A stretch of DNA of 64,000 nucleotides from an uncultured Pseudomonadales bacterium (GTDB lineage Bacteria; Patescibacteriota; Microgenomatia; UBA1400; MFAQ01): NCBI GenBank assembly GCA_964509695.1, contig CAZDXN010000001.1, positions 51,188 to 115,187 on the forward strand, written 5' to 3'. Within the stretch, counting starts at the first letter, position 1. Each line of letters opens with the position of its first letter. Of the stretch, positions 27,722 through 60,424 are shown piece after piece. A program made the position numbers and the translations under genes. The notes under the pieces were generated by a model. The model did not search any database and was not told the DNA's origin. It saw only the letters and a program-made list of their open reading frames with translations.

Positions 27722-27723
27722 TC

Positions 27724-28440: not shown

Positions 28441-28451
28441 CAAATAATATT

Positions 28452-29231
28452 ATGAAAACATTTCAGGATAAAAAATCGGAAATAACGTTTTTTGACAATC
28501 TCGCGATTAAGAGTGAATACGATGCCGTTCCCGAACAGGTATATAAAAAAGTTGCCATACGTTGTCACAGATTACTACAAAGCAAGCCATCAAAGATACT
28601 TGAAGTGGGTTGTGGTTCAGGAAAATTTGGTAAGGCACTAGCTCAATTGGGTCATAAAGTTACCGGTATAGATATATCATCTGAGACGGTGAAGAACGCC
28701 AATCGAGAAAAACCAAAAGGTTTCAAAGCGAAAATTCTCGACATGGAAAACCAAAAAAATTTTCCTAAAGACTCCTTCTCTCTAATACTCTGCCCCGGTG
28801 TTCTTCATCATTTACCGAACTTAACTATAAGCCAAGCAATTCCAAACTTCCGTCATTGGCTTGAGCCGGGTGGGTTAGTGGTTTGTTGGGAACCAAATGG
28901 ATCAAACCCAATCACCGCGCTTTCCAAAATTCTCTTTAGACTAGTTTATCTTATAGCTGGTGGTGGTGAATTTGCGACAGTGAATGAAACAAATCATTCA
29001 TTTAAACAATATTTGTCGTCATTTGAAAGAAATGGTTTCAGACTTGTCTCTTCGAGGCCCTTATCTGATAAAAGCACGGCTGGCTTTTCAAATCCTGTCA
29101 TGCGGATCCTCATCGAAATTCGTTGGCTTTTGTATGTTCTAATCGACAAACTGATCCCTCCCCCCTTTTCTGGAGTGATGTTATTCATGATCTATCGAAA
29201 AAAATCATTACTTTCGAAGACATATGCTTAG
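28452..29231 (+). CDS. Class I SAM-dependent methyltransferase
   Basis: ILEVGCGSGKFGKALAQLGHKVTGIDIS motif. Confidence 0.7.
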   Translation: MKTFQDKKSEITFFDNLAIKSEYDAVPEQVYKKVAIRCHRLLQSKPSKILEVGCGSGKFGKALAQLGHKVTGIDISSETVKNANREKPKGFKAKILDMENQKNFPKDSFSLILCPGVLHHLPNLTISQAIPNFRHWLEPGGLVVCWEPNGSNPITALSKILFRLVYLIAGGGEFATVNETNHSFKQYLSSFERNGFRLVSSRPLSDKSTAGFSNPVMRILIEIRWLLYVLIDKLIPPPFSGVMLFMIYRKKSLLSKTYA

Positions 29232-32040
29232 CCAACTAGTCCTTAGCGGATTTCTTTATACGATCGTCGCGATAGCAAGTATTAGAAAGCTTCTTGGTAT
29301 AGGGGAGGGCTTGGGACACAACTGGGATTCACCGTTTTCACCCTTGGCTATAAGTTATCTCTCTATGCTCAAAAACCTCCCGTATGTCTGGAACGGTCAA
29401 CATTCTCTCGGGTTTCCCATTATCTCTTCGATCTCAACCAAGATATGGTGGCTTTTCAATTCTACGGTCGGCATTGTTCTCAAGGGCAGTTTTGTCACCC
29501 AATTTATGATTTTATTTCTAATGATTGGTGGTGGGTTGCTTATGTTCTATTATGTTCGACAAATTCTAAAGACTAGCGGCCGTTCATCACTCTTTTTTGC
29601 ACCATTTTGTGCCGGCTTGTTTTTCATGTTTTCGCCGGTGGTTTTCGGTCACATAGTCGGCGGAGCTTTCAATCAGTTCTTTACTATGGTTGTGTCCCTA
29701 TTACTACTCATTGCCCTACAGGCCGGCGCATCAAGACAAAATATCAATAGAACGTCGATTGAAATATCACTCATTTTTATATTTATCTCCGTCACCCTCC
29801 ACAATCACCTAATTAACATTTTTATCACCATCTGTTACGTTTCACTTTTATATAGCTGGACTATAAAAAGGAAAATCGAATTGGCAGCAAAGACTACGAT
29901 GATTAGCTTGCTATTGGCAGCATACTGGCTTTTCCCAGAAATATACGGCTTGGCCAACTCAAATATTGCTCAAAAACTAAAGGAAAATATCTCCTTCGGC
30001 AACTTGGTTGTGAATGTGCCCAGTATAAGTAATGCGCTTTTTGCTAACGGTTATGTCCGTCGTTTCTATGACTTCATGGTTATAGACGGTCTGTATTCCA
30101 TTTGGAAAGTTGCCGGCCTATCTTTATTCTTCATCATCATCGCTTCAGTATTTCTAGTCGGCGAAACAAATTTTCAAGTCAAAAAATATTCTCTTTTCTG
30201 GTTTGGTTTGTTCTTAATCTTTGTAAATTTCGCTACCGGTTTTACCGGTCCATTAGGATCGGCTATCAAATTTTTGTACGAAAATTTCCCCCCACTATCG
30301 ATTTTTCGTTCTCCCCAATGGTGGATGATGCCCTTAACGATTTGTTTTGCAGTTCTTATTGGCTTGAGCTTCGAGCGATTCGCCAGCTTGCTTCGATTCA
30401 AACTATCAACCAAATTATCGTTGTTCACCCTCTTGGTATTTGTCTTACACCCTTTTTATATATCGGGAGATTTAGGCATTGAAAAACTGTATCAAAGGCA
30501 ACTGGCGACTACCAATTGGTATAAGGCTGATCATCTTGATTTGTACAAAGTTCCGGGTGATTACCGCAAAACGATCGAAATTCTTGCCAAAGACGACTCC
30601 GACTCAAAAGTTCTTCTCCTCCCCCTTAGTTTAAGTCCCTATTTCGAAGTGACATCGTATCAAAAGCAGGGTTCTGGAGTTGACCCGATTCTCGCTTATC
30701 TAGCCCCCAAGCCCGTCATCTTTAACGATATAAATGTTGAATACGACACAAAGAGCACTCTACTCTCTCCGGAGAAAAAACTTTATCGCGACCGGAGTCT
30801 CGAATTTCTAAACCTATTGGGGGTTTTCAATACGAAGTACATTTTATTCAAGAAAGATTACTCTCCTGTTTTTTCTGATTATCGAAACTTCTGGGACGGC
30901 CAAACAGTTTACAGTCTACTGACGAAAAATATCAGCCAAATTGGCGAAATTGTCGAAAACGGTGAGTCGACTCTCCTCGTCAAGCTCAATGACAACCTAT
31001 ATTGGCCCCACGTTTACGTCCCACAAAATATTTTCGTTGTCAGTGGCAATCCACAATCATTATCAGATATTGGTTCTCTGGTTGACGACAAAAAAAAATC
31101 CGCCGTCTTTTTTTCCGAGGCGGTCAGCGGCCCCCAAGTTTCAGATCCTCATGATTTAGATCGTGAAAATGTCTCCCCATCTTCACTTTTTGTAGTCGGG
31201 GAACTGATAAAAAAAATTAAAGGTTATTATCGATCGAAGTTTGATCTTAAAATTCCTCAAGCAGGAGAATACAAGATTTTGGCAAAAAACGACCTCCAAG
31301 ACACCAATTGGAAATTGGTTGAAGAAAAATATTTCGAAAAAGGTCAAACCACATATCTTCTACCGGAACCAAAACCCATCAATCTGGTCGATAAGTTCGG
31401 AGTCATAACGGATTATCAATACGATACCGAATACCTAGTCAGTTTCTATTACAACGATGATAACGACAACACAATATTGACAGTTGTCGAAGAAGGTGAA
31501 AAAGAAAAGCTAGTTCTCGACAAACTCCCGCGCACGGAAGAAAATTTTGTGTTATATCAAACCGTTTTTCGTTCAACCCCAAGGGGCCTACCGGCAATAA
31601 TATCCGTTTCAAACGAAGCGGTGAAAGATCTCAGAGTCGAAAAAGTGACATCTCCCCAGATAATCCTTTGGAAAAAAGGCCGGGTAGAAATGAAAGATAC
31701 TCCAGAAGTAGAGTTGGTAAAGATCAACCCGACGAAGTACCGAATCACCGTGAAGAACGCCACCAAACCATTCGTTTTGATTTTTTCCGAAGCCTACAAC
31801 CAAGGGTGGAAGCTTAGATACATGAACCGTGTGATTTCCAAAGCCAGTCACAAAGTGGTTAACGGATATGCCAATTCGTGGATTGTAGTCCCCAACGAGG
31901 TAGGAGCCAAACGTGATTTTGAGCTGATCATTGAATTTTGGCCGCAAAAACTATTCTATATTGGTCTACTTATAAGTGGTTTTTCACTGATTCTCACCCT
32001 CTCATTTCTGATAAAGTACGCCAATGAAAAAGAATCGTAA
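29224..32040 (+). CDS. Large polytopic membrane protein, YfhO-like GT-C glycosyltransferase candidate
   Basis: About 13 N-terminal TM helices, a large C-terminal extracytoplasmic domain and a terminal TM helix. The C-terminal FSEAYNQGWKL...VNGYANSWIV...EFWPQ block is shared with 50680..52863 and resembles the YfhO-family C-terminal signature. Confidence 0.5.
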   Translation: MLSQLVLSGFLYTIVAIASIRKLLGIGEGLGHNWDSPFSPLAISYLSMLKNLPYVWNGQHSLGFPIISSISTKIWWLFNSTVGIVLKGSFVTQFMILFLMIGGGLLMFYYVRQILKTSGRSSLFFAPFCAGLFFMFSPVVFGHIVGGAFNQFFTMVVSLLLLIALQAGASRQNINRTSIEISLIFIFISVTLHNHLINIFITICYVSLLYSWTIKRKIELAAKTTMISLLLAAYWLFPEIYGLANSNIAQKLKENISFGNLVVNVPSISNALFANGYVRRFYDFMVIDGLYSIWKVAGLSLFFIIIASVFLVGETNFQVKKYSLFWFGLFLIFVNFATGFTGPLGSAIKFLYENFPPLSIFRSPQWWMMPLTICFAVLIGLSFERFASLLRFKLSTKLSLFTLLVFVLHPFYISGDLGIEKLYQRQLATTNWYKADHLDLYKVPGDYRKTIEILAKDDSDSKVLLLPLSLSPYFEVTSYQKQGSGVDPILAYLAPKPVIFNDINVEYDTKSTLLSPEKKLYRDRSLEFLNLLGVFNTKYILFKKDYSPVFSDYRNFWDGQTVYSLLTKNISQIGEIVENGESTLLVKLNDNLYWPHVYVPQNIFVVSGNPQSLSDIGSLVDDKKKSAVFFSEAVSGPQVSDPHDLDRENVSPSSLFVVGELIKKIKGYYRSKFDLKIPQAGEYKILAKNDLQDTNWKLVEEKYFEKGQTTYLLPEPKPINLVDKFGVITDYQYDTEYLVSFYYNDDNDNTILTVVEEGEKEKLVLDKLPRTEENFVLYQTVFRSTPRGLPAIISVSNEAVKDLRVEKVTSPQIILWKKGRVEMKDTPEVELVKINPTKYRITVKNATKPFVLIFSEAYNQGWKLRYMNRVISKASHKVVNGYANSWIVVPNEVGAKRDFELIIEFWPQKLFYIGLLISGFSLILTLSFLIKYANEKES

Positions 32041-34759
32041 ATTACTCCTTCTCTTAATTTTGCCAATTCTATTTTTTTGCCTTTGGGTTTTTTTGAGCAC
32101 ATTCGCCTACCTAAAGAACACGGGGACAGGCTTTCTAACCCTAGAAGATAGTTTTGAAAAACAAAATCTTTCCGGAGATATTACCGTAAACTTGACTAAA
32201 GGGAAAATAGTTACGGGTAGGTTTGTCTCAACTCATGTGAATTTGGGGTCAATATCAATTAGGTTCAGAACCTTCGATCGCATCAACGACGACAAGCTTC
32301 TATTCAGAATCAGGGAAGAAGACAAAATAACTTGGTTCTACCAAGCTGAATACAAAACCGATCAATTCCAACCCAATCAACTATTCCCATTCGGTTTTCC
32401 TCCCCAAAAGGACTCGAAAGGACGAAGTTATGTTTTTGAAATCGAATCATTGGACGGGAGTCTTTTTAACAGTGTTGCCATTGGGGAAACGACCCCAGTT
32501 TTTGTGGCCAGATACACCCTTAGCAAACAGGCCCTACTACTCAACCCGGGACAATTCGTGAAATTTCTTTTCATCAGATTTCAAAACATATCAAAGGATG
32601 ATCAGTTTCTCTCGAGTTGGCGATTCTTCGTCGGCATCCTGTCAGTCTATTGTGCTTCTACTCTTTTAAATAATTCTTTTATCAAGTGGTTTGTGCTTTT
32701 GAATCTCGCCACCATTAGTACGATTATTTTCGACCTAGATCACAACTGGGTTTTCTTATCAGCGATCAGCCTCTTCTGGTTTATCACATTCATAAAATTC
32801 AAAAAAACATCTCGCGACATAGGAAAAATTGCCGTTACATATCTATTTGTCTTAATGGTAGCGACCCTAGCTAATCAAACAAGATATCTCGAAAAGATTT
32901 CAAATTGGGTTTACTATCTCACCCTCATGGCTTTTCTAAGACACATGATCAAAAAGGACATTAGTTCGCTATTTAATAAAATTGCCTCTAGTCAAACCCC
33001 CCAGATCATTCTTATAACTGTCATTGTCGGCATAGTTGTGCATGAAATTTCAAATGTATATTATCTTCCTGTTTTTAGATTGATCGGTGGATTACAGCCA
33101 ATTTTCATCCTCAGTATCTTCATGTTAATCCTCGGAGAGGCATTATTAGTTCTTAGAGGGAAATTGTCCCCCCTCTTTTTTGTGATTTTCATTCTCAAGC
33201 TACCGTTTATTTTCCACGGGAACTGGGAAAATAATTTTTTTGTAACCTACATGACCGACGAGGTTGTTTTTCTATCTCCAATAATCTCACACGTCCATTC
33301 GGGTTCACTTAGCCTAAACGAGTTCCTGATTTTCGGTTACCCGCCATTTTTGTTTAATGTCCTTTATGGTCTTTACAGTCTGCTTTTCGGAATATTGAAA
33401 ATAATGAGTATCCAACTCTCTGAAATCAGAACACTTGAAATTATTTATTACGGGGGAAGGTTATTAGTTCTAACGGCCACTGTTACTGGCTCTTATTTCT
33501 TTCTAAAGGTATTTCGAGAACTTATACCGTCTCGTTTTTATCAGGGACTTTTAATAATTCTTATCAATTTTAACGGTCTCTTCTTTTTATACTCGACCTA
33601 CTTAAAGACAGATAATCTAGTCTGGGCGATGGGGGCGATCGCCATTTATCAAGGATTGGTCTTCTGGAAAAACAGAAACAGGGTTAACTATTATAAGTTT
33701 GGTCTATTTTCCTTAATACCATCACTCATCAATTACTATGGCTACATTTACATTCTTTTTTTTGCCTTGATATCGATCGTCTCTTCAACCCCGAAAAACA
33801 AAGAAATCTCTATCCCAATAAAATCGAAATTAATTTTTACACTCGTTATCCTGCCAATCTTGTGGTTGCTGGCAAACTTCGAACTTGCCCCAAAGATCAT
33901 CGAGGTCGTCTATTATTTCATCAAATTTGCTACCAGCAAAAACGAACTATTTGTTCCGTTCTTTGAAAATATCAACAATTATCCCTCATATATATTTTAC
34001 TTCGATTATCTTAAATTTTTCTTGACTCCCATCCTATTAATTTTTATTGGTTTACTTCTCTTCATGAAAAAAACTAATCTATATTTCAAGTTATTATGTT
34101 TGACTATGGTGCTATTTTTTCTTCAGCTATCAACCGCCTCATATCGTACTGACCGACTATTTATTCCAATTTATATTTTCGCCATTCTTCTGGTTGTTTA
34201 CTTACTTTCCCAAATATACAATTTCCTCTTGAAAAGTAAATTGCGTTTTGTCGTCGCCTTAATAAGCTTGGCTTTAGCCGGACCGATTCTTGCGAGAACC
34301 CTTTTGCTCGCAAAAACATTACAGGGGGAGGACACCCGTTTAACTTTATACAAATATATCCAACAGGAAGTTCCTGAAAAAGCCTCGCTTACTTTTCTTC
34401 ACAACTCAATTTTTGGAGCCTATGCAACTTCTGATTATCTAAAAAGGAATAATTCCAAAATGTTTGACATTAGAGTTATAGATTTGACGGTTGGTCGTGA
34501 GAACGAACGCTTGAAGGAGATTGGTGGCTATTTTATTGTTTCAGCCTTTGATCTTGATATCTTACGGAAATTCGGCAACACCCCATATTACGGTAGGTCG
34601 TTTCAGGAAACCACAGATCTCATCGCGCGAAGTAAGGAAGTGAGCTTCGTCGACAAAATCAATTATCATTCGGAACCATTTGGTCCGATCGATCTCTTCC
34701 CCAACTCGCTTTACGGCATTCAAAATCCACCACTACTCATCTACAAAACAAACGATTAA
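32024..34759 (+). CDS. Fusion of a conserved uncharacterised roughly 110-aa domain (N-terminal, membrane-anchored) with a large polytopic GT-C-like membrane domain
   Basis: The N-terminal TM helix is followed by the ISIRFRTFDRINDD...YKTDQFQPNQLFPFGFP domain, which is also found at 39345 and 52860. About 20 TM helices follow. Confidence 0.5.
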   Translation: MKKNRKLLLLLILPILFFCLWVFLSTFAYLKNTGTGFLTLEDSFEKQNLSGDITVNLTKGKIVTGRFVSTHVNLGSISIRFRTFDRINDDKLLFRIREEDKITWFYQAEYKTDQFQPNQLFPFGFPPQKDSKGRSYVFEIESLDGSLFNSVAIGETTPVFVARYTLSKQALLLNPGQFVKFLFIRFQNISKDDQFLSSWRFFVGILSVYCASTLLNNSFIKWFVLLNLATISTIIFDLDHNWVFLSAISLFWFITFIKFKKTSRDIGKIAVTYLFVLMVATLANQTRYLEKISNWVYYLTLMAFLRHMIKKDISSLFNKIASSQTPQIILITVIVGIVVHEISNVYYLPVFRLIGGLQPIFILSIFMLILGEALLVLRGKLSPLFFVIFILKLPFIFHGNWENNFFVTYMTDEVVFLSPIISHVHSGSLSLNEFLIFGYPPFLFNVLYGLYSLLFGILKIMSIQLSEIRTLEIIYYGGRLLVLTATVTGSYFFLKVFRELIPSRFYQGLLIILINFNGLFFLYSTYLKTDNLVWAMGAIAIYQGLVFWKNRNRVNYYKFGLFSLIPSLINYYGYIYILFFALISIVSSTPKNKEISIPIKSKLIFTLVILPILWLLANFELAPKIIEVVYYFIKFATSKNELFVPFFENINNYPSYIFYFDYLKFFLTPILLIFIGLLLFMKKTNLYFKLLCLTMVLFFLQLSTASYRTDRLFIPIYIFAILLVVYLLSQIYNFLLKSKLRFVVALISLALAGPILARTLLLAKTLQGEDTRLTLYKYIQQEVPEKASLTFLHNSIFGAYATSDYLKRNNSKMFDIRVIDLTVGRENERLKEIGGYFIVSAFDLDILRKFGNTPYYGRSFQETTDLIARSKEVSFVDKINYHSEPFGPIDLFPNSLYGIQNPPLLIYKTND

Positions 34760-35271
34760 CGTCTCAAATTCAGATAGGTCGGCCGTTGACTAGATATTAT
34801 GTATCTCAACAACTCAGGAATTTCTTCTTTTGTCTCGGGCCAAAAAGCCTCAATTTTTGAAAAAACTTCCATGATCTTCCTGTCCTCCTCGGCCCAATGT
34901 GAAAAACCATCATGACCATAATCCCTGTTTCTTCCACCGCCAATTAACTTTACTGGAATACCGTCGCGGTGAAGATAGTTCCGTATTGTCTCGAATGGCC
35001 GGTAAAGAAGAAAGGGTGTAATTGAATAGACAACCGGAATCTGACCCTCGATTGCCAACCCGACAGCCATACCCACCATTGCCTGCTCGGCTGCGCCAAC
35101 ATTAACAAATCTCTTTGGGAAATCTCTTTTGACTCTGTCAAACATCCCATAACCCAAGTCTCCAGTCATCATCCAAATACGATCGTCAAGTCTCATTAGG
35201 TCATGTAATTCATAAGTGAACCACCCTCTCATACTCTCATACCTCTCGGATACCTTTAGCTGCTCGACCAT
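34756..35271 (-). CDS. Transketolase C-terminal subunit, pyrimidine-binding domain only (lacks the usual C-terminal domain)
   Basis: GDLGYGMFDRVKRDFPKRFVNVGAAEQAMVGMAVGLA and DGFSHWAEED motifs. At 171 aa it is too short to hold the C-terminal domain. Confidence 0.7.
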   Translation of the reverse strand: MVEQLKVSERYESMRGWFTYELHDLMRLDDRIWMMTGDLGYGMFDRVKRDFPKRFVNVGAAEQAMVGMAVGLAIEGQIPVVYSITPFLLYRPFETIRNYLHRDGIPVKLIGGGRNRDYGHDGFSHWAEEDRKIMEVFSKIEAFWPETKEEIPELLRYIISSQRPTYLNLRR

Positions 35272-36032
35272 CTTGCCAAGGCTAATTCATAATCATCGGC
35301 TGACATTGTATGGTAATGGGCAGACAGGCCGTTCAAAAAGGGAAGTTGTTCGACATTTGTATAGGCAAAGATGATAGTGGGGTCAGTTGTTTCTGATCTT
35401 AAGGCTACCACAAGGCTCTCTAAGTCATGACCGTCTACCCCGACCAGGTTCCAGCCAAATGATTGCATTGAAATTACCAAACGATTTATATCTATTTCAC
35501 CATACCCCCCATATCCATTAGCATTAACCACCAACCTTAAATTACCTAGTTTCAATTCGCGGGCAATTCTTAGTGCCTCCCAAATACTACCCTCAGCGCA
35601 TTCACCATCCGAGACACAGCAGTAAACATTTCTGGTTCGGTCAGAGAGTGCCATTCCGACCGCGATCGGCAGCCCTTGGCCCAAACTCCCAGTGGACACC
35701 TCTATCCCAAGGTTCAGATTCCTGTCTGGGTGGACACCCAATTCATCGATGCTCGGGTTTTCCAATAGTCCATATCTTTCCATGACGGCATAAAGAGCGG
35801 TGGCTGCATGTCCGTTACTTAGAACGAACTTGTCTTTCGGTTCCTTTATCGAAAAAACGGCCTCAACAATATCCACCACCGATAGAGCAGAACCCAGATG
35901 GGCAACCTTCGCCTTGTAGGACATTTCAATGATTCTTCGGCGATTTGATATTTGTTCTGGCGTCATCATCGGGTATGATATCACGGCCATTGAACCTAGG
36001 CCATTGTGGTTTACAATATCAGAAAATGACAA
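35256..36032 (-). CDS. Transketolase N-terminal (thiamine diphosphate-binding) subunit
   Basis: KVAHLGSALSVVD, SNGHAATALYAVMERYGLL and GSLGQGLPIAVGMAL motifs. The true start is probably an internal Met near 35969-35990. Confidence 0.8.
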   Translation of the reverse strand: MSFSDIVNHNGLGSMAVISYPMMTPEQISNRRRIIEMSYKAKVAHLGSALSVVDIVEAVFSIKEPKDKFVLSNGHAATALYAVMERYGLLENPSIDELGVHPDRNLNLGIEVSTGSLGQGLPIAVGMALSDRTRNVYCCVSDGECAEGSIWEALRIARELKLGNLRLVVNANGYGGYGEIDINRLVISMQSFGWNLVGVDGHDLESLVVALRSETTDPTIIFAYTNVEQLPFLNGLSAHYHTMSADDYELALARWSSS

Positions 36033-36790
36033 AGTTTTTTATTACCGGCGTATCATCGGGGATCGGTAGAGCCTTAACCGAGGAATTGGTTAAGGCTGGT
36101 CATTCAGTCTGGGGGGTGTCGAGAAGACGAGCCCTCCTTATCGGATTGAAAAAACAGTTGAATGCAAACAAGAACTTCAAGTTTTGCTCTATGGACATAA
36201 CCAGTCCTAGTAGTTGGCAACGCCTAATTACAAAAATGTCTTCTGCGAAGTTTGTGCCGCAGGTTGTTGTTTTTAATGCAGCGATCCTCGAAAATGACTA
36301 CCTGTCCAATAACTCCATTGATATGATATCGACTCGAAAGATGATGGAAACAAACTATTTCAGTACCTTATCAGGTCTCAATGAGCTGTCGAAAGTAGTC
36401 AGGAGAAAAACAAAATTTATTTTCGTTGGATCATCCTCGGCTTTTAAAGGCAGTGGGGAAGAGGGGATCGGTTATTCCGGAAGCAAGGCGGCTCTCAATA
36501 CTGCTTTTGAAAGCCTATTTCAAAAATTCAATGCGGCCTACAACTTTAAAATTATTCATTTCGGTCCGATAAAAACGGACATGGTTCCGTTTGATTCGAG
36601 AATATTGTTTATGAGGTCTCCACAGCAAGCAGCGCGGGCGATCATTGAGGCCGTCAAGACCGACGGTCACATTTTCTATTACCCGTGGTTGCCATTTTTT
36701 TTCCTTCGGATTATTAAATTACTGCCATCCCCGATATACTTATCAGTGCTTAACACCATTAATTCTATTCACAGAAAATACAGAAAATAA
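36026..36790 (+). CDS. Short-chain dehydrogenase/reductase (SDR)
   Basis: FFITGVSSGIGRAL (TGxxxGIG) and YSGSKAAL (YxxxK) motifs. The start was set at the internal ATG. Confidence 0.75.
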   Translation: MTKFFITGVSSGIGRALTEELVKAGHSVWGVSRRRALLIGLKKQLNANKNFKFCSMDITSPSSWQRLITKMSSAKFVPQVVVFNAAILENDYLSNNSIDMISTRKMMETNYFSTLSGLNELSKVVRRKTKFIFVGSSSAFKGSGEEGIGYSGSKAALNTAFESLFQKFNAAYNFKIIHFGPIKTDMVPFDSRILFMRSPQQAARAIIEAVKTDGHIFYYPWLPFFFLRIIKLLPSPIYLSVLNTINSIHRKYRK

Positions 36791-36793
36791 ACA

Positions 36794-37756: not shown

Positions 37757-38639
37757 AATTCGTCAGATTTGTCCCCTGTGCACGAATAAGCAGTATCGGG
37801 TTATTTTCAGGTCAACGTTTAACATTAATAAACACCTGACAACCAAAATATTTTCTGCTAGGCGTTTCCCTGATCTGATCCATGGAACAATAGTCAAATG
37901 CACCAACTGTGGGTTAGTTCGGACCTTGGAGGTAATAAATCCAATGAAACTAAAAATTCTTTATCAAAAAAGCGCTTTCACTTACCAAAATCTTACCAAT
38001 AACCTAAAGACAACATATGGCAGGATTTTAAAAGACGCCAGTAAGTATACAAAAAAAGGATCATTATTAGAAATCGGCTGCGGCAACGGCTTCCTGTTGG
38101 AAGAAGCAATAAAAATCGGCTTTAACAAGGTTGCCGGTGTAGAACCCAGTCTCGATGCCTTTCATCAGGCAAATTACGTCATAAAATCCGCCATTAAGGT
38201 AGATATTCTGCGTCAAAAACAATTCCATCAGAACAGTTTCGACCTAATCGCCGCTTTTCAGGTTTTCGATCATATCGCAAATCCAAATAAGTTTTTAAGT
38301 ATTTGCCATTCATTATTAAAACCAGAAGGAATCTTGGTATTAATGAACCACGATGTCGCTTCCTTGTCTGCAAAAATACTAGGAGAGAAAAGTCCTATTT
38401 ATGATATCGAACACCCTTTTCTATATAGTCAAAATACAATCAGAAGAACACTTGAGAACAACAATTACAAAGTTATGAAAATATATAGCCCAACAGCAAT
38501 ATTTAACCTAAAATACTGCTTGAGGCTTTTACCATTACCAGCTTCAATAAAAAAAATGTTGGAACTATCAAAGAGCTGGTTATTGAATATTAATTTCAAG
38601 ATAAAGCCCGGAAATATAGCCGTTTATGCTCAAAAATAG
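37707..38639 (+). CDS. SAM-dependent methyltransferase with N-terminal zinc-ribbon (CxxC...CxxC)
   Basis: CPLCTN...CTNCGL zinc-ribbon motif, then LLEIGCGNGFLLEEA motif I and AFQVFDHI. Confidence 0.65.
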   Translation: MQSSEALSTQKEDVRNKIRQICPLCTNKQYRVIFRSTFNINKHLTTKIFSARRFPDLIHGTIVKCTNCGLVRTLEVINPMKLKILYQKSAFTYQNLTNNLKTTYGRILKDASKYTKKGSLLEIGCGNGFLLEEAIKIGFNKVAGVEPSLDAFHQANYVIKSAIKVDILRQKQFHQNSFDLIAAFQVFDHIANPNKFLSICHSLLKPEGILVLMNHDVASLSAKILGEKSPIYDIEHPFLYSQNTIRRTLENNNYKVMKIYSPTAIFNLKYCLRLLPLPASIKKMLELSKSWLLNINFKIKPGNIAVYAQK

Positions 38640-45235: not shown

Positions 45236-45855
45236 AAAAAATAAAACTTAATCTCGGTTCGGGACCGTCCGGAATAAACGGCTGGGTTAATTATGACACT
45301 GGAGTACTTCCTTGGCTCTCAAGACATCCCCAACTTAGGCATCTAATTTGTGCTTTGGGTCTGTTACCCAAAAATTACGACGTCGAATGGCCTGAAATCC
45401 AACTGGTCGATATAAGACACAAGTTTCCTTTGGAAGATGAATCTGTCGATTTTATTTATTGTTCCCAAGTAATCGAGCATTTTGAAAGATATGAAGCTCT
45501 AAATATACTAAGGGAGTCTCACCGGGTTCTAAAACTTGATGGAGTTATCCGCATCAGTGTCCCGGATATAGAGAAAATGCTTAGTCCTGATTTTACCGCC
45601 AGAGAAATAAACGTCCTCTGGTGGGGATACGAAAAAGATATTCCTCCTGCAAATATTTTCTCCAAGATTTCACGGCTATTTATTCGCGAACATCAATGGC
45701 ACTATGACACTACATCAATGAAAAAGCTCCTCTCTCAAGCTGGCTACAGGAGGGTGAAAACGTGCTCATTCAGAAGAGGTGAAACACCTGATCTTGATCG
45801 AGTTGAGATTGATGCTCACAAAAAGCACAGCCTCTATATAGAGGCAAAGAAATAG
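45232..45855 (+). CDS. SAM-dependent methyltransferase (Methyltransf_11/23-like)
   Basis: KLNLGSG motif I and FIYCSQVIEHF motif. Confidence 0.6.
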   Translation: MKKIKLNLGSGPSGINGWVNYDTGVLPWLSRHPQLRHLICALGLLPKNYDVEWPEIQLVDIRHKFPLEDESVDFIYCSQVIEHFERYEALNILRESHRVLKLDGVIRISVPDIEKMLSPDFTAREINVLWWGYEKDIPPANIFSKISRLFIREHQWHYDTTSMKKLLSQAGYRRVKTCSFRRGETPDLDRVEIDAHKKHSLYIEAKK

Positions 45856-45862
45856 ATCAGAT

Positions 45863-47212
45863 ATGAAAATCTTATTTATATATCCATCCAACGACCCCTC
45901 TTATCCACTACAGCTTGGAGCTCTCTCATCCTTTATAAAACAAGAGAAACATCAGGCAAAGTTGTTATCACTAAAAATTACTGGGACTATAGAAACCGAG
46001 CATTTTTCTGAAATCAAAGGAATCATTAAGGACTTTAACCCGGATTATATTGGTTTCAGTTGTTACGAGACCGCCTTCCCCTGGATAAAAAAAATAAGTA
46101 ACTACATCAAGAAGCACTGGCCGGGGATAAAAATCATTGCCGGGGGATACTTCGCCACGCTCGCCCCCGAAGAAGTTATCTCATTTAAAGCGATAGATAT
46201 TGTTTGCCGAGGTGAGGGGGAATATCCACTGCTCGAGTTGTTCAACAAACCTCAAAAGACTAATATCCAGAACTTATGGATAAAGAAGAGTAATGAAATT
46301 ATCAAAAATCCCATACGACCATTGATTGTGGATCTGGACGAACTTCCCTACCCCGATAGGGAAATGCTCGACTACCAAAACCAGTTGGATCTTGAAAAAA
46401 GGGGTGAAAGGACTATCAAGATAATGGCCACTCGAGGTTGCCCTTATTTTTGCACCTACTGCAGCAACAAATATTTCCGAGCTCTCGTTCCCAATCCCCA
46501 GATATATCTTCGGCTGAGAAGCCCGAAAAACGTCATCGAAGAGATCAAACAACTAAAGTCAAAGTATAACTTTGAACTCGTCGGCTTTCATGACGACAAT
46601 CTGACGCTGGACATCAAATGGCTGAAAAAATTTGCAGGGCTATATAGTAAACAAATCGGTCTCCCGTTTTACTGCGCCACCAGAGTTGAGTATTGTAAAA
46701 ATGAAGTTCTCGACATTCTAAAAAATGCCGGCTGCTACTTACTGCTCATCGGCGTCGAAAGCGGTGACGAAAAATATCGGGCGGGGATGATGAAGCGATT
46801 TATGACTAACAAGGCTACCATCGAAGCCTTCCATCGTGCTAGGGGAAAAGGTCTCCTAACTTGGTCATTCACCATGGTCGGCCTTCCCAAAGAAAATCGG
46901 TTAATGCTGCTGAAGACGATCTGGTTAAATTGGCAGTGTAAGGCTGATTTCGTCATGTCTTCAATTTTTTACCCCTTAAAGGGAACTGAACTAGGAAATC
47001 TTTGTTATGAGAGTGGTTGGGTAAACCAAGAAAAAAAAGAAAATATCACCTCTTATGCTTGGGATACCGTCCTCGATCATCCCATTCTTTCAACACTAGA
47101 AATCCGCTTGGCAAAATATCTGAACTCCCTTACCGCCATCAGAAGCCCTCTATTTTGGGAGCTGACTTCCAGCAGGGTAAAAAATTATTTGCTGGGAAAA
47201 GGAAGACTATGA
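45863..47212 (+). CDS. B12-binding radical SAM protein (class B)
   Basis: ATRGCPYFCTYCS motif and B12-binding N-terminus. Confidence 0.75.
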   Translation: MKILFIYPSNDPSYPLQLGALSSFIKQEKHQAKLLSLKITGTIETEHFSEIKGIIKDFNPDYIGFSCYETAFPWIKKISNYIKKHWPGIKIIAGGYFATLAPEEVISFKAIDIVCRGEGEYPLLELFNKPQKTNIQNLWIKKSNEIIKNPIRPLIVDLDELPYPDREMLDYQNQLDLEKRGERTIKIMATRGCPYFCTYCSNKYFRALVPNPQIYLRLRSPKNVIEEIKQLKSKYNFELVGFHDDNLTLDIKWLKKFAGLYSKQIGLPFYCATRVEYCKNEVLDILKNAGCYLLLIGVESGDEKYRAGMMKRFMTNKATIEAFHRARGKGLLTWSFTMVGLPKENRLMLLKTIWLNWQCKADFVMSSIFYPLKGTELGNLCYESGWVNQEKKENITSYAWDTVLDHPILSTLEIRLAKYLNSLTAIRSPLFWELTSSRVKNYLLGKGRL

Positions 47213-47991
47213 AAAAAAAGATTGAAAAAAACCGTTGGCAAGCTGCCCAAAAATTTGAATACAATGACTGGGCAAATATGCCAAACATCGTAACAGATGA
47301 ATGGAAAGAGCTCGTGAAGAAATATTCAAAACTATTTCCAAAAATCGCCAAAAGCTCTGACCTGAAAGATTCAGACGCCATTCTCGACGTCGGCTGCGGT
47401 CCAACCGTCCCAGCCAGGCTTCTTAGAAAAGGAAGGGTCACTGGTATCGAACCCCTAGCAGATAAACTCAAGATCTCTGGAGGAAAGTACTTACCCGGCG
47501 TAAATATCATCTGCGGCAAAGCCGAAAAAATGCCTTTTAAAGATCACTCATTTCAGTTCGTTGTCTGTCGAAACGTCATTGACCACACCCAGAATCCCAA
47601 GGTAATCATTAAAGAAGTAAAAAGAGTTTTAAAAAAAAATGGTCATTTTCTTCTAATTTCTTACACCTATTCACCTTTTATCACTTTTGTAAAAAACATT
47701 AGCGAGCGCATTGGATTATTTCGCAACATCGGTCATCCATTCACCTTCACACCAGAAATGCTTGACCAACTAGTTCAACCGGAATTTGAAATCAAACAAA
47801 GATATACTATTCACACAGGCAAAGATTCTACTGACTATGGCAAAGTGGGGGAGGAGATTGTTGACAATTCCTTGCTGCACAAGACGATGATATTTATTAA
47901 CAACAAAATTTTGGGAGAACCATGGTTTCTAAAGGAATACGGCTTCTTGTGCATCCCAACACCAAAACATACTAAATATGCCGAAGTCTAA
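47209..47991 (+). CDS. Class I SAM-dependent methyltransferase
   Basis: The start sits in an ATGA overlap with the upstream stop. ILDVGCGPTVPARLL motif I and VCRNVIDH. Confidence 0.7.
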   Translation: MKKKIEKNRWQAAQKFEYNDWANMPNIVTDEWKELVKKYSKLFPKIAKSSDLKDSDAILDVGCGPTVPARLLRKGRVTGIEPLADKLKISGGKYLPGVNIICGKAEKMPFKDHSFQFVVCRNVIDHTQNPKVIIKEVKRVLKKNGHFLLISYTYSPFITFVKNISERIGLFRNIGHPFTFTPEMLDQLVQPEFEIKQRYTIHTGKDSTDYGKVGEEIVDNSLLHKTMIFINNKILGEPWFLKEYGFLCIPTPKHTKYAEV

Positions 47992-49525
47992 AAAGAAAAT
48001 TATTCTAATTAGACCTCTCGTTTTTTCAAAGACGAGACCCTATTACGGTGCTCCACTCGCATTGTTGGCGATTTCCAAAATACTAGCAACCGAGGGTTAC
48101 AAGATAAAGATCATCGATCCGCTAACTCACAGGGACTATGTCACTGCTGTAGTTCGGGAAGCAAAAGACGCCATTTGCGTTGGTATTTCGGCCTTGACGG
48201 GATATTCTATTTTCGATGGATTACAAATTGCCCGGGCTGTCAAAAGGAAATATCCTAAACTTCCGGTCGTTTGGGGAGGCTGGCACCCGTCAATCCTCCC
48301 TCTTGAGACCATCAAAGACGAAAATGTCGATATTGTGGTCTACGGACAAGGCGAAAGAACCTTTACCGAATTGGTCCACTCCATAGAGAAAAATAAAACA
48401 TTAAAAAATATTAAGGGGATAATCTATAAAAATAAGAAGGGAAAAATAGTTCAAAATACACCGAGACCAATCGAATCGTTAGACAACTTCCCCCCCGTTC
48501 CTTATCACCTGATCGACGTAAAGAAATTTCTCGTCCCTCAAGAATACGGGAAAAGATCTCTAGTCTATTACACAAGTTTTGGTTGTCCTCATCGATGCAT
48601 TTTCTGTGTCGAACAAATCGTAAACAACCGTCATTGGGCCGGACTCTCTCCAGAGCGGGCCGTGGAAGAAATCACCGACATGAAACAAAAATACGGAATT
48701 GACTCAATCCAGATTATCGATAGTAATTTCTTTATCAATGAGGATAGGTCCCGGAGGTTCGCCCAACTCTTAATCGATCAAAAAGTGAACATAAAGTGGG
48801 GAAACGTGAACGGCAGAACTAGGCAGATGAGCCAATACAGAGATTCCACCTGGAAGCTAATGAAACAAAGCGGCCTCGAATGCATCCTGATCGGAGCCGA
48901 GTCGGGCAGCAACGAGACTCTGAAATATATGAAGAAAGATATCACCGTCGCTGACACTCTAAATTTGACCAAGTTCTGTGCCAGATATGACATAAAGATT
49001 CTTAGTTCGTTCTTAGTCGGATTTCCTCACTCAGCCGATCCAGAGAAATGTTACAAGATCACCGAAAAGGAACTAGCCACCTCTCTGAGGTTAATCGATA
49101 AAATGTTCAAGATCTATCCTCGAATTAGAATGATGTTTGCCTTATTCCTCCCCTATCCCAGCACCGCCTTGTTCGAAGAAAGCCGGAGAATGGGTTTAGA
49201 GATACCCGAAAGACTTGAAGATTGGCACGAATTTCTGATTGCGGCTGAAGATGCATCCAAAATCAGAGTCCGTCAAAAATGGATTACCCAGGAACAAGCG
49301 CGCCGGATCTTAATGATTTCTATCTATATATTTTTCTTTATGGATCCTGATTCATTCAATTTGGTCACCGCCAAAATTAATAATCCGTTGAAAAAAGCCT
49401 TTCTCCATTTTGGGTTCCAAGTTTTCAAAAAGATTGTTGACTTGCGTTGGAAATATAAATATTTTGGATTACCAATCGACTTTTGGTTTTATAATATTTT
49501 AAGAAAATATAGCGGTCTAGGATAA
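47978..49525 (+). CDS. B12-binding radical SAM protein (class B)
   Basis: TSFGCPHRCIFCV motif and B12-binding N-terminus. Confidence 0.75.
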   Translation: MPKSKKKIILIRPLVFSKTRPYYGAPLALLAISKILATEGYKIKIIDPLTHRDYVTAVVREAKDAICVGISALTGYSIFDGLQIARAVKRKYPKLPVVWGGWHPSILPLETIKDENVDIVVYGQGERTFTELVHSIEKNKTLKNIKGIIYKNKKGKIVQNTPRPIESLDNFPPVPYHLIDVKKFLVPQEYGKRSLVYYTSFGCPHRCIFCVEQIVNNRHWAGLSPERAVEEITDMKQKYGIDSIQIIDSNFFINEDRSRRFAQLLIDQKVNIKWGNVNGRTRQMSQYRDSTWKLMKQSGLECILIGAESGSNETLKYMKKDITVADTLNLTKFCARYDIKILSSFLVGFPHSADPEKCYKITEKELATSLRLIDKMFKIYPRIRMMFALFLPYPSTALFEESRRMGLEIPERLEDWHEFLIAAEDASKIRVRQKWITQEQARRILMISIYIFFFMDPDSFNLVTAKINNPLKKAFLHFGFQVFKKIVDLRWKYKYFGLPIDFWFYNILRKYSGLG

Positions 49526-49535
49526 AGTTCTCTCC

Positions 49536-50675
49536 ATGATGATTTTTATTGCCAATCAATTCGTAGGGAAAAATCTTTCAACAGGCGGAGATATCCTTGC
49601 CGTGGAAATGGCCAAGAGAATCAGGGGGAAACTGACAATACTTGCCCCAATTCAGATTCACGCGCAACTATCAAAGGCACTTCCGAAGGCAACTTTAATT
49701 ACCACCAATGCTTTGTATTCGTCCTCGGCTACAGCATCCACACTCTACGGTGGAATATCTATATTTATTAGCTATCTAATTCGATCGTGGAGAAGTACCT
49801 CGTGGCTTCTAAAGAACATCAAGAGCGGCGATCGAGTCTATCTAACTGGTGATTTTATTTGTAACACCCTACCAGCATGGATAATCAAGATGGTAAAGCC
49901 TGAAACAATAGTTCTCGCGAACTTTTATCATCGAAATCCAAGACCAAACGCACGTCTTGGAAACAACTACGTTGTCAGTGCCTTCTCGCGTTTCCTGCAA
50001 AATATTAGCCTAAAAATTCTAAGAAAGATAATCTTCAAAATCTTTGTTCTTTCAAAAGTTGGAGAGGGCGAGTTGGTCAATGAAGGGTTCATCTCTTCAC
50101 AAATCATTGTTTCTGGAGCAGGGACAAATATTGACAAACAAAGACGAAATCTAGCGAGGAAAAAAAATCAAATTGTTTTTGTGGGGAGAATAAATATTAC
50201 CAAGGGGGCATTCGATCTCATAGAGATCTTTAACCAAGTAGCCAAAAAGAACAATAAAGTCAGACTGATAATGCTCGGTGGATCATCAGGGGCAGACAAA
50301 TCAAAGTTGGAAAAGTTGATAAAGGACTATTCTTTAGGGGATAGGATCAGATATCTAGGGTTCGTAGACGAAATAACAAAAAACAAAATCTTGTCTGAGT
50401 CAAAAGCCTTGGTTTTACCATCGAAAGAAGAGGGCTTCGGAATTGTTATTATGGAAGCACTGGCTCTTAGAACACCAGCGGTCTGTTACGACTTACTGGC
50501 GCTAAAGACAATTTTTTCAAGATATCAATCAGTCAATTTTGTAAAAAAGTTTACGAAACAAAAGTTTGCAGACAAAATCATCAAAGTTGTGTCAGAAAAA
50601 AAAGAAGTCCCAGTAGAAAACCTAGGATCATGGGACGATGTTTACAAAATTCAGTCAAAATATTTTTCGCAATAG
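49536..50675 (+). CDS. GT4 family glycosyltransferase
   Basis: KEEGFGIVIMEALALRTPAVCYD GT4 signature. Confidence 0.7.
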   Translation: MMIFIANQFVGKNLSTGGDILAVEMAKRIRGKLTILAPIQIHAQLSKALPKATLITTNALYSSSATASTLYGGISIFISYLIRSWRSTSWLLKNIKSGDRVYLTGDFICNTLPAWIIKMVKPETIVLANFYHRNPRPNARLGNNYVVSAFSRFLQNISLKILRKIIFKIFVLSKVGEGELVNEGFISSQIIVSGAGTNIDKQRRNLARKKNQIVFVGRINITKGAFDLIEIFNQVAKKNNKVRLIMLGGSSGADKSKLEKLIKDYSLGDRIRYLGFVDEITKNKILSESKALVLPSKEEGFGIVIMEALALRTPAVCYDLLALKTIFSRYQSVNFVKKFTKQKFADKIIKVVSEKKEVPVENLGSWDDVYKIQSKYFSQ

Positions 50676-50679
50676 ATAA

Positions 50680-52863
50680 ATGAAAGAAATACTCAATAAA
50701 ATTGTCCGTCCCGCGATTCCATTATTTCCACTGTTGCTTATTACCGCGATCTTCATTCTTCCGCTTACCAAACCGGGGTTGATTGTTGGAGGCGACTGGA
50801 CCTTTCCCTCCTCCAACCAAGAGCTTCGGGTCTTTGGCGACCGAGCCTTTTCGGTTTGGGTCAACGCTGAAATACCCTTCGGAACACAAGTCTCTCATAA
50901 CAATCTATATTTGTTTCAGATACTTGCCCACCTTTGGGCATCGATCGGATTTAACGGAATAAGCTTCCAAAAGATTACCCTTTTTCTAACAATCTTTGGC
51001 ATTTATGTGTTTTCGTATCGTTTACTTTTAAAGCTCACCAGATCTCCGTTTGCGTCCGTGGTGGGGGCCATGAGTTACCTCTTTTCTCCCATCGTCTTCA
51101 ACTACCTCAATATGGGCTGGAACTATGTCTTGCTTTTTTTGGCCCTCGCCCCTCTCTTTACCCAAATTGCCCTCGACTTCTTCAAAGACGGAAAAAAGAA
51201 ACACATCATCGCCCTTGGCCTAATCTCGGCCATAAGCTTCTTCCAATCCCAATCGATTGTTTGGCTCCCCCTTATTTTTATCTGTATTTTCATCTCTCAA
51301 GTCACTAGAAAAAATTTATTAAAAAACCTTCTGCGTTTCGGCACGGCCTCAATCGGAATCGTCATAATCGTTCTCATCGTTCATCTGCCTTGGCTTCTCC
51401 CCATAATTCTAAACCCCGGCAATATCATTAACAGCACATCAGCAATTGACCTGAAAAGGTTTTCGGAGGTACTCTCAATATCAAATCAATTCCGTCTCTG
51501 GGGGAGTCTATACAACCAAGAATTTGAGCTGGCTTTTCCCCAGGTACTGGTTCTGTTTCCCTTTGCCCCAATCCTAATTTGTGTCCTCTCACCACTATTG
51601 TCCTCGTTTGAAAAAAAAAGGCTGCCGGCTTACCTCCTCGTGTTGCTACTGATATCAATTGCCCCCACACTATACATCTTCCGTGGAGCGATCGCCGACC
51701 TCCCGTTCGCCGCGGTGGTCAGGGATATCAGTAGATTTCTTGTAATTACTTCCCTGGGCTTTTCGTTGGGAATCGCGCTTACACTCTCCGTCAACAAAGG
51801 TCGATTGGGCCGGGTAATTATTTGCATTGTATTAATTCTTTCGGCAATACCGTATTTTCTTGGTAGATTATATACACTAACCGGTGACCCATCGCCGCAA
51901 TCGAACGAGTATAAGGATTTTCGCGCCAGGCTACTATCCCTTCCCGAAATAGAAAACGAATCAACGCTCCCACTTTCTAACCAAACAAACATTTTTTTGC
52001 CCACGGGGGGATTTATCTTCACAAAAACTGACACCCGGTTCAATCGTGACTTTTGGAGTATTGCTGACATCCAAGGCAATTTTTCTCCGATCGCATCGGG
52101 AATGTATTTCACCGATAAGAGCGATTTTCTGATATCCAACCTTGTCCAAAATTATTCGCTGGTAAGTAACAATATTGACCTTTTGACCGCTTTCTTTCGA
52201 GTCTACGGGATTAACAACCTTGTTTATCGTTCTGGACTCGAATCGACTTACAAATCGCAGTTAGATCGTGACGGCATCCAAAAAAAATGTCAGGCAGTCC
52301 TTCCGGAAAGTGATTCTGATTGGTCCATTACCTCGATTTGTACCATTAAAGATACTTACCCCCTCATTTATGCTTCTGTATTACCCCGATATTCAGCCAG
52401 ACCGTTTAGTGAGATATTGTCTGAAAAAAATAATCAAGACCGCATCGTCATTTTGGGCTGTCCGAAAATGATAAAAGAGAAAAGTATTATTTGTAATATT
52501 GGCAAAGTTGATAATTTAGCCTCTACCGCCCCATCCCTGAAGTTTAATAAAATCTCCGAGACGAAGTACCGTCTCGAAGTCGAGGATATCAGGGGGAAAT
52601 TTTTATTAGTTTTTAATCAAACGTATCATCCTGGCTGGGTTATTCGAAGTAAGTTTGGGGAAAAGCTAAACCTTCCCCACATTCTGGTAAATCAATTGGT
52701 TAATGGTTGGGTGGTGGATCCGGCAGGGGATCTGGACAAGGAAGAATACATTATCGAGTTTTACCCTCAGATGCTCTACTCGGGACTATTGCCGATCTCG
52801 TTAATTAGTATCCTAATTATGCTGCTCTACCTCGTCTACCAATCGAAATCAAAAAGTCAATGA
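50680..52863 (+). CDS. Large polytopic membrane protein, YfhO-like GT-C candidate (paralog of 29224..32040)
   Basis: Multi-TM N-terminus and an extracytoplasmic C-terminal domain. The FNQTYHPGWVI...VNQLVNGWVV...EFYPQ block and terminal TM helix are shared with 29224. Confidence 0.5.
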   Translation: MKEILNKIVRPAIPLFPLLLITAIFILPLTKPGLIVGGDWTFPSSNQELRVFGDRAFSVWVNAEIPFGTQVSHNNLYLFQILAHLWASIGFNGISFQKITLFLTIFGIYVFSYRLLLKLTRSPFASVVGAMSYLFSPIVFNYLNMGWNYVLLFLALAPLFTQIALDFFKDGKKKHIIALGLISAISFFQSQSIVWLPLIFICIFISQVTRKNLLKNLLRFGTASIGIVIIVLIVHLPWLLPIILNPGNIINSTSAIDLKRFSEVLSISNQFRLWGSLYNQEFELAFPQVLVLFPFAPILICVLSPLLSSFEKKRLPAYLLVLLLISIAPTLYIFRGAIADLPFAAVVRDISRFLVITSLGFSLGIALTLSVNKGRLGRVIICIVLILSAIPYFLGRLYTLTGDPSPQSNEYKDFRARLLSLPEIENESTLPLSNQTNIFLPTGGFIFTKTDTRFNRDFWSIADIQGNFSPIASGMYFTDKSDFLISNLVQNYSLVSNNIDLLTAFFRVYGINNLVYRSGLESTYKSQLDRDGIQKKCQAVLPESDSDWSITSICTIKDTYPLIYASVLPRYSARPFSEILSEKNNQDRIVILGCPKMIKEKSIICNIGKVDNLASTAPSLKFNKISETKYRLEVEDIRGKFLLVFNQTYHPGWVIRSKFGEKLNLPHILVNQLVNGWVVDPAGDLDKEEYIIEFYPQMLYSGLLPISLISILIMLLYLVYQSKSKSQ

Positions 52864-60411: not shown

Positions 60412-60424
60412 CACATATGATATA

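Follow-up and report, generated by a model that had tools for sequence, protein, structure and literature searches.

Two anciently diverged GT-C paralogues with novel-domain membrane partners in a large surface-glycan locus: candidate polyprenyl-phosphate-dependent glycosyltransferases between the YfhO and AftD families

Introduction

The present analysis concerns two putative glycosyltransferases and their neighbours in a stretch of 64,000 nucleotides of contig CAZDXN010000001.1 (assembly GCA_964509695.1, positions 51,188 to 115,187 of the forward strand; hereafter the window), which was derived from an uncultured bacterium that apparently belongs to the Microgenomates within the Candidate Phyla Radiation (CPR). 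The two proteins, designated A and B, are predicted to adopt the GT-C fold of membrane glycosyltransferases, and they appear to represent a separate, largely unannotated family that lies between YfhO (PF09586) and AftD (PF11847) and, by curated thresholds, is a member of neither. Both genes are encountered in a giant (>60-kb) surface-glycan locus, and each of them overlaps a downstream gene for a membrane protein that carries a novel outside domain. The most probable function of these AftD/YfhO-like enzymes is that each of them, together with its membrane partner, uses a polyprenyl-phosphate-linked sugar to glycosylate a surface glycan at the outer face of the membrane. The coordinates of all features are collected in Table 1.

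Results and discussion

A and B are remote paralogues with a shared C-terminal block

A first-pass annotation of the window had proposed that A and B are paralogues, on basis of a conserved C-terminal block that is followed by a terminal transmembrane (TM) helix. Direct comparison of the two proteins by BLASTP aligned only their last 168 aa (32% identity, E 2e-15). The homologues that were gathered for each protein (19 for A and 30 for B) were aligned as profiles, denoted A1 for the A family and A2 for the B family, and comparison of these profiles by hhalign gave a match over the full length (probability 100%, E 8.5e-40, 700 columns, 18% identity). Judged by this profile match, A and B are genuine but very remote paralogues that diverged anciently, rather than the products of a recent duplication. 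The C-terminal block is present in both proteins (FSEAYNQGW...VNGYANSWIVV...EFWPQ in A and FNQTYHPGW...VNQLVNGWVV...EFYPQ in B) and is followed by a hydrophobic helix, as the annotation had stated. No other stretch is as well conserved across the wider family: all 55 sequences compared share the residues W862, N884, W886 and Q908 (numbering of A), and the alignment of the block displays invariant W, H, N, N and W positions. Members of the family were also found in Paramagnetospirillum and Vulcanimicrobiaceae.

The predicted structures are of the GT-C type and resemble AftD most closely

The proposed topology, consisting of a multi-TM N-terminus, a large outside domain and a terminal TM helix, is borne out by hydropathy and by AlphaFold (AF2) models that were built on the family alignments; these agree on approximately 11 N-terminal TM helices, an outside domain of 300-500 aa and one C-terminal TM helix. 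Both models were of high confidence (pLDDT 84.2 and pTM 0.81 for A; pLDDT 82.3 and pTM 0.86 for B). The N-terminal part of each model contains TM1, a first outside loop with short helices, and ten more membrane helices, and the third membrane helix is broken at a conserved, near-invariant FSP motif. The remainder comprises an outside alpha/beta domain, the beta-sandwiches (two in A and a single one in B, with the conserved block in the last) and a long terminal helix that ends in a Lys-rich tail. When the models were compared with the Protein Data Bank (PDB) by Foldseek, the mycobacterial alpha-(1->3)-arabinofuranosyltransferase AftD (6W98) ranked first for A (E 1.4e-16, TMq 0.55) as well as for B (E 1.9e-10, TMq 0.53), followed by STT3, AglB, PglB, ArnT, AftA and DPY19, all with a probability of approximately 1.0. 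Given the confidence of the models and the nature of these matches, a GT-C fold is a well supported prediction for both proteins.

The likeness to AftD covers the GT-C core and the outside domain. The paper that describes the AftD structure reports 11 TM helices in the GT-C core, a kink of TM3 at a proline and, after the core, an outside alpha/beta domain and then beta-sandwich modules. A and B share the core of approximately 11 TM helices and the kink of TM3 (at FSP in A and B and at ALSP in AftD), as well as the succession of an outside alpha/beta domain, beta-sandwich modules and a chain that returns to the membrane. AftD is considerably larger (approximately 1,400 aa, versus 938 aa for A and 727 aa for B), and it has three carbohydrate-binding modules (CBMs) plus one sandwich and five C-terminal TM helices, whereas A and B have one or two sandwiches and a single TM helix. 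Moreover, AftD binds the acyl carrier protein (ACP), and there is no evidence for ACP binding in A or B. The donor that is used by AftD is decaprenylphosphoryl arabinose (DPA), but a DPA-type pathway and UbiA- or DprE-type genes were not found among the open reading frames (ORFs) of the window that were scanned. Homologues of AftD have been reported only in Actinobacteria (AftD paper).

Conserved residues are found at the positions where catalysis would be expected. In the A family, G31 and D35, directly after TM1, are invariant in 55 diverse sequences (consensus IGHNWDW), giving the motif GHNWD35 in the first extracytoplasmic loop (EL1), and in the B family G37, G38, D39 and W40 are invariant in 29 sequences (EL1 motif GGD39W). 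In GT-C enzymes the catalytic Asp or a modified DxD motif sits in this first outside loop (PMC11127046, PMC8035078). In addition, Arg residues are conserved in the loop before TM10 (R362 in A, within FRSPQ; R348 and R352 in B, within IRDxSRF) and would be suited to binding of the donor phosphate. Relatives carry CBM_4_9, CBM_11 or F5/8-type-C domains at the site of the extra beta-sandwich of A; by analogy with AftD and the GT136 enzyme, this variable insert would fit an acceptor-binding module.

The conservation pattern also bears on the proposal that A and B are catalytically dead, and that with their GT-C fold they serve the surface-glycan machinery as scaffolds, in glycan binding or in export. 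This proposal is scarcely credible. It could draw on the failure of A and B to match any curated enzyme family, and on the observation that conservation peaks in the C-terminal beta-sandwich block and not at a classical DxD motif. However, the acidic, Arg and Pro residues at canonical GT-C loop positions are invariant among 29-55 diverse sequences, the full GT-C core is kept, and the genes are located inside operons of glycosyltransferases and sugar-modifying enzymes.

A large family that lies between YfhO and AftD

The first-pass annotation had placed A and B in the YfhO family. This placement is not supported: neither protein was matched by the PF09586 hidden Markov model (HMM) at E<=0.01 or at E<=10, and in a Pfam scan the model matched 0 of 16 close and 0 of 55 sampled relatives. 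A control YfhO protein from a metagenomic locus (L008) scored 38.1 bits with PF09586, of which the gathering score is 28.5 bits. The AftD model PF11847 (GT-C_AftD, formerly DUF3367; gathering score 26 bits) was weakly matched by 6 of the 16 close and 5 of the 55 sampled relatives (11 of 71), with best scores of 28.8 and 26.0 bits and most scores below the gathering score; A and B themselves did not match it. Among PDB sequences, AftD was the best, albeit borderline, match of the broader A-family profile, denoted A3 (E 0.012, collinear over TM2-7), and likewise a borderline match of A1 (E 9.4). The B-family profile only gave chance matches to GPCRs in the same search, and the C-terminal block alone gave none, without a sequence counterpart in AftD.

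Despite the failure of PF09586, a remote relation to YfhO was detected. Comparison of A3 with two PF09586-positive proteins by hhalign gave a probability of 97.2% (E 4e-11) that was confined to TM1-6, while A1 alone reached 19%. A broad family profile scored 33.9 bits with one PF09586-positive protein, and the matched parts (N-terminal TM region, C-terminal beta block and last helix) are collinear. Weak support was obtained for the resemblance of the C-terminal block to the YfhO C-terminus that the annotation had noted, as an HMM of the block matched the C-terminus of a PF09586-positive YfhO at 11.9 bits (pairwise E 6.4e-6); in that protein the equivalent block (pattern PGW...[FY]-x-P...G-L-x-I) is covered by the last 75 positions of PF09586. 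As far as remote sequence similarity can tell, these comparisons show that the link to YfhO is one of clan-level kinship rather than of family membership. In our reading, the N-terminal core is nearer to AftD, as judged by the Pfam HMMs, and the single terminal helix and the C-terminal block are YfhO-like. Canonical annotated YfhO was also sought in plasmids by tblastn, where a metagenomic YfhO query yielded one unannotated match of 67 aa and a query with A yielded none.

A search with the A-family profile against 1.84 billion cluster representatives retrieved 11,972 proteins at E<=1e-3, including 2,847 at E<=1e-30. The family of A and B is very large, comprising approximately 12,000 clusters at 50% identity, and is largely missed by Pfam and NCBIfam.

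Genuine PF09586-type YfhO proteins, with F5/8-type-C inserts, are encoded in two metagenomic loci (L008:1-3644 and L012:775-3552) that also hold two tandem A-family GT-C genes, PMT_2-type GT-C genes and B12-binding radical S-adenosylmethionine (SAM) enzymes. Members of the YfhO and A families are present side by side, as separate paralogues, in these multi-GT-C surface-glycan loci.

One lipid-sugar synthase and a flippase with a probable module of its own

The annotation had further proposed a three-component glycosylation system in two copies, in which a GtrB/CsbB-like GT2 and a Wzx-like flippase serve A and B. The GtrB-like gene was readily confirmed: its product matches PF00535 (E 3.9e-31) and, over the full length, the NCBIfam models PgfS (E 1.2e-68) and ArnC (E 4e-36), in both cases below the equivalog cut-offs, and it has TM helices at residues 228-246 and 271-289. 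The full-length matches together with the two C-terminal TM helices assign it to the GtrB/CsbB/ArnC class. The gene lies 4.7 kb downstream of A, past the partner gene of A, a divergent split transketolase and a short-chain dehydrogenase/reductase (SDR) gene, and it precedes B by 13 kb. Four GT2 genes whose products have C-terminal TM helices (at 4486, 8241, 9279 and 40863) were considered as extra GtrB-like donor enzymes and were rejected, as none has a full-length PgfS, ArnC or GtrB match; these four and the GT2 at 22968 match ordinary GT-A models through their N-terminal domain only. Of the proposed two copies, the GT-C enzymes and one polyprenyl-phosphate-sugar synthase are present, and a second GtrB-like gene is not. 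With a single clear lipid-sugar synthase alongside four to six transferases of the GT-C type, the locus does not hold two copies of a three-component system.

The logic of such systems is nevertheless shared. In Gtr-type three-component systems (GtrA/GtrB/Gtr*; Citrobacter ORF12/14/15 with GT136; GacI/J/K/L), synthesis in the cytoplasm yields a lipid-linked monosaccharide, which after flipping serves as the donor for a GT-C enzyme that often has a CBM-like outside domain (PMC11127046, PMC8035078). The window differs from them in having one GtrB-like gene for at least four, and possibly six, GT-C-type genes, and differs from the classical examples in the dedicated novel-domain membrane partner of both A and B. 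Independent support for a lipid-monophosphate donor is provided by two other loci, L009 and L010, in which a short PpgS/AglJ/PgfS-like GT2 gene is located two genes after a homologue of B (38-47% identity).

The Wzx-like flippase is likewise present, but the role that had been assigned to it is not sustained. It directly precedes a GT2 gene that is cut by the end of the window, and in a close relative on a 97%-related contig (L003:18814-22175) the wzx gene is followed by genes for a 277-aa GT2 and a 495-aa PMT_2-type GT-C. The Wzx/GT2/PMT_2 order resembles GacK/GacI/GacL, of which GacK is an example of the Wzx-type flippases that have been proposed for three-component systems of this kind (PMC8035078). 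Since Wzx directly precedes its own GT2, and in L003 a PMT_2 gene as well, a role in that module or in the export of repeat units is more plausible than one with A and B.

These findings allow the YfhO-based proposal to be weighed as a whole. In this proposal, A and B are YfhO-family enzymes that form two classical three-component systems with a CsbB/GtrB-type GT2 and a flippase, and that act on a teichoic-acid-like acceptor. YfhO of Bacillus subtilis, Staphylococcus aureus and Listeria (partners CsbB and GtcA) indeed has the same architecture, with a single terminal TM helix after a beta-rich block that contains PGW...[FY]-x-P, and uses a C55-P-sugar that is made by a GtrB/CsbB-type GT2 (PMC8035078). 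Such a donor-making gene is also present in the window, there is the remote homology described above (hhalign 97.2%; family profile 33.9 bits, with collinear matches), and Wzx-type flippases such as GacK have been proposed for systems of this kind. Even so, the proposal is very unlikely to be correct. PF09586 misses A, B and 71 relatives, yet matches genuine YfhO genes in related metagenomic loci; the single GtrB-like gene adjoins neither A nor B; GtrA or GtcA is not found in the window, and the flippase goes together with a GT2 and a PMT_2 gene of its own. Finally, the host is probably of the CPR type and not a Firmicute, and a teichoic-acid acceptor finds no support. To our knowledge, teichoic acids have not been established for CPR bacteria.

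The main rival explanation concerns the type of donor. In this case A and B would use undecaprenyl-diphosphate-linked oligosaccharides and would transfer Wzx-exported repeat units to a chain, a protein (S-layer, pilin) or another anchor, in the manner of a polymerase, a ligase or an oligosaccharyltransferase. The structural matches that follow AftD include STT3, AglB and PglB; Wzx is present, a recognisable Wzy polymerase or WaaL-type ligase was not found among the ORFs scanned, and the many cytoplasmic GT2 and GT4 enzymes of the locus could build a lipid-linked oligosaccharide. Still, we regard this explanation as unlikely, because the outside domains of A and B lack the WWDXG-type motif that marks the oligosaccharyltransferases STT3, PglB and AglB, and the closest HMM relatives, AftD and YfhO, use monophosphate-linked single sugars. 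An STT3 Pfam match was also absent. Furthermore, genes for polyprenyl-phosphate-sugar synthases recur near family members, and candidate polymerase-like proteins are encoded elsewhere in the window (10379..11497 and 363..2027, both on the minus strand).

Both GT-C genes are coupled to genes for novel-domain membrane proteins

Each of the two GT-C genes is followed by a gene for a novel-domain protein, in agreement with the first-pass annotation, and the coupling is tight: the reading frames of A and its partner overlap by 17 nt, those of B and its partner by 4 nt. The two partners differ in length and in number of TM helices, but have a novel N-terminal domain in common, in which 105 aa align at 47% identity (E 7e-29). 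This domain is approximately 140 aa long, has no Pfam or NCBIfam match, and has the consensus NLG.vSvRF.T..R.NdD.L.FR...WYY.A.YKTDQFQ...FPFGFP.i.DS.G..Y.fEieS..G. A third protein with this domain is encoded between the two pairs (39% identity over 169 aa with the partner of A, E 6e-32; 36% with the partner of B). The domain family is rare, with 12 homologues found in a word-based search, and modular.

Conservation of the pairs was followed in related loci. The pair of B and its partner is found in Ca. Collierbacteria (B 46% identical; partner 37% over the full length, E 8e-72), which is the only locus with this pair in a scan of a genome collection (GTDB representatives), and is also kept in L003 and L004, where the partner is 49% identical. 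The latter two loci hold an extra module that consists of a 724-aa GT-C, a 516-aa membrane protein and an acetyltransferase. In L010 (L010:7175-10384), the gene that overlaps the end of the B homologue encodes a fusion protein of 1,069 aa, in which the novel domain (37% identity, E 2e-28) is joined to a PMT_2-type GT-C, and in L009 the gene after the B homologue lacks the novel domain. The pair of A and its partner is kept in L005. The gene after a Magnetospirillum-like A homologue was considered as a novel-domain partner and turned out not to be one.

The sequences of these pairs diverge faster than their surroundings. Relative to L003, the flanking genes for Gmd and Wzx are 96-97% identical, whereas identity drops to 67% for B, 49% for its partner and 60% for the upstream GT4 (window 49536..53771). 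Similarly, the radical-SAM genes are 82-90% identical to those of L005, whereas A is 62% and its partner 54% identical (window 27643..34759). Within the locus, divergence is fastest in the GT-C/partner cassettes, as is expected for determinants of specificity, of linkage or acceptor, in a surface glycan.

The fusion with a GT-C, the signal-anchor topology and the tight coupling suggest that the partners are extracytoplasmic accessory proteins with a role in acceptor handling. A second, acceptor-binding protein for GT-C systems was speculated upon in a 2021 review (PMC8035078). A bolder version, in which A or B and the downstream partner form an obligate two-subunit glycosyltransferase, with the partner serving acceptor recognition or replacing GtrA in donor flipping, and in which the cassettes are exchanged and diversified between strains so that the CPR surface glycan varies in a seroconversion-like manner, is speculative and on present evidence improbable.

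Proposed mechanism and the evidence that weighs against it

In the mechanism that we favour, A and B would reside in the cytoplasmic membrane, where the approximately 11 TM helices form the GT-C core, and would bind a polyprenyl-phosphate-linked sugar from within the membrane. The invariant EL1 acid (D35 in A and D39 in B) would be used for sugar transfer at the outer face. The acceptor would be the surface glycan, or a glycoprotein, that is built by the locus, and it would be held by the outside alpha/beta domain and the beta-sandwich(es), while the terminal beta-sandwich block and the last TM helix may clamp the outside domain to the membrane. The GtrB-like GT2 is the best candidate in the window for loading of the sugar onto the lipid carrier. 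Each GT-C enzyme appears translationally coupled to its novel-domain membrane protein, which is probably an accessory, acceptor-handling subunit.

Several observations weigh against this mechanism. Searches with A, B and both partner proteins against Pfam and NCBIfam, including those at E<=10, returned nothing usable, and the activity of A and B is entirely inferred from fold and conservation. The structural match to AftD does not discriminate between families, since AftD is also the top HHpred match for YfhO, GtlB and other Gram-positive GT-C enzymes (PMC8035078). The structural matches that rank second are the oligosaccharyltransferases STT3, PglB and AglB (E 1e-6 to 1e-3), which leaves some room, albeit limited, for a diphosphate-linked oligosaccharide donor. 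The candidate catalytic acid is offset by two positions in the profile alignment of A and B (NWD versus DWT). With respect to the donor, the GtrB-like gene adjoins neither GT-C gene, a GtrA-like small ORF with four TM helices was not found in the window, and the GtrB-like gene has no orthologue among the GT2 genes that lie beside more distant homologues in L002 and L007. Finally, the downstream partner is not kept in distant A-family loci (the Magnetospirillum-like locus, L011 and L012).

Wider context of the locus

Besides A and B, the locus encodes further GT-C-type enzymes (Table 1). The two PMT_2-type proteins, encoded by adjacent genes downstream of B, would be further consumers of lipid-linked sugars. 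The possible third one, which lies between A and B, matches a protein of 733 aa from the Collierbacteria locus that is PMT_2-positive (BLASTP E 2e-8).

Table 1. Features of the window that are discussed in the text. Positions are those of the window; (-) marks minus-strand members of a group.
Feature	Position	Strand	Remarks
GT-C enzyme A, 938 aa	29224..32040	+	ORF confirmed at these exact ends
Partner of A, 911 aa	32024..34759	+	Signal-anchor, novel outside domain (~140 aa), ~13 TM, C-terminal soluble domain
GT-C enzyme B, 727 aa	50680..52863	+	ORF confirmed at these exact ends
Partner of B, 303 aa	52860..53771	+	Signal-anchor, novel outside domain, ~4 TM
Third novel-domain membrane protein, 276 aa	39345..40175	+	No GT-C gene directly upstream
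GtrB/ArnC/PgfS-type polyprenyl-phosphate glycosyltransferase, 320 aa	36794..37756	+	GT2 domain and two C-terminal TM
Possible PMT_2-type GT-C, 719 aa	41924..44083	+	~14 TM; no Pfam match; weak evidence
PMT_2-type GT-C, 469 aa	57004..58413	+	PF13231 E 1.5e-6, above gathering score
PMT_2-type GT-C, 544 aa	58400..60034	+	PF13231 E 3.7e-7, above gathering score
Wzx/MOP-family flippase, 412 aa	62327..63565	+	PF01943 E 2.6e-22, PF13440 E 2.2e-18; NCBIfam MOP flippase
GT2, cut by window end	63562..64000	+	88% identical to L003:20049-20882
Split transketolase-like pair	34756..35271, 35256..36032	-
SDR gene	35945..36790		Pair and SDR gene directly upstream of GtrB-like gene
Radical-SAM genes	7232..8251, 11513..13051(-), 19579..21084, 23920..25371, 26177..27721, 45863..47212, 47978..49525
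Toxin-antitoxin-like modules	15218..16698, 55540..56930(-), 60103..60721, 61799..62300
Soluble protein, 295 aa	54599..55486	-	No family match
8-TM protein	363..2027	-	C-terminal tetratricopeptide (TPR) repeats; candidate polymerase- or ligase-like
7-TM protein	10379..11497	-	Weak NCBIfam match, 'cell surface glycopolymer formation'; candidate polymerase- or ligase-like

The arrangement of the split transketolase-like pair and the SDR gene is kept in L005 and in the Collierbacteria locus, and their products may modify the sugar, by addition of a two-carbon branch or by epimerisation, before or after lipid loading. The glycan locus is interspersed with genes for seven radical-SAM enzymes, of which six are B12-binding paralogues and one is of the SPASM type, and it also encodes more than ten class-I SAM methyltransferases; this set suggests that the surface glycan is unusually heavily (C- and O-) methylated. 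One of the radical-SAM proteins falls into a 90%-identity cluster with OGK57746.1 of Ca. Roizmanbacteria. This shared cluster and the occurrence of the B pair in Ca. Collierbacteria are the two, indirect, grounds for a probable CPR (Microgenomates) host. Four toxin-antitoxin-like modules (two AbiEi/AbiEii pairs, a RelE-like/HTH pair and a HicB/HicA-like pair) are located near boundaries of variable segments, and the gene for the 295-aa soluble protein lies between a hexapeptide acetyltransferase gene and an AbiE module. Altogether, at least 60 kb of contiguous glycan-biosynthesis genes would represent a large share of a genome of roughly 1 Mb.

Significance

GT-C enzymes set the final, outward chemistry of the cell surface, as in seroconversion of the O-antigen, decoration of teichoic acids and synthesis of the mycobacterial arabinan. 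The family described here, with its approximately 12,000 clusters, lies between its only two characterised relatives, YfhO and AftD, and merits an HMM of its own, so that its members are no longer annotated as hypothetical proteins. Of greatest interest in the locus is that each of the two GT-C genes is paired with a gene for a novel-domain membrane partner, and that this pairing is conserved yet evolves fast. If this pairing is functional, it would provide a concrete case of the speculated second, acceptor-binding subunit of GT-C systems, as well as a handle on surface variation in ultra-small episymbionts.

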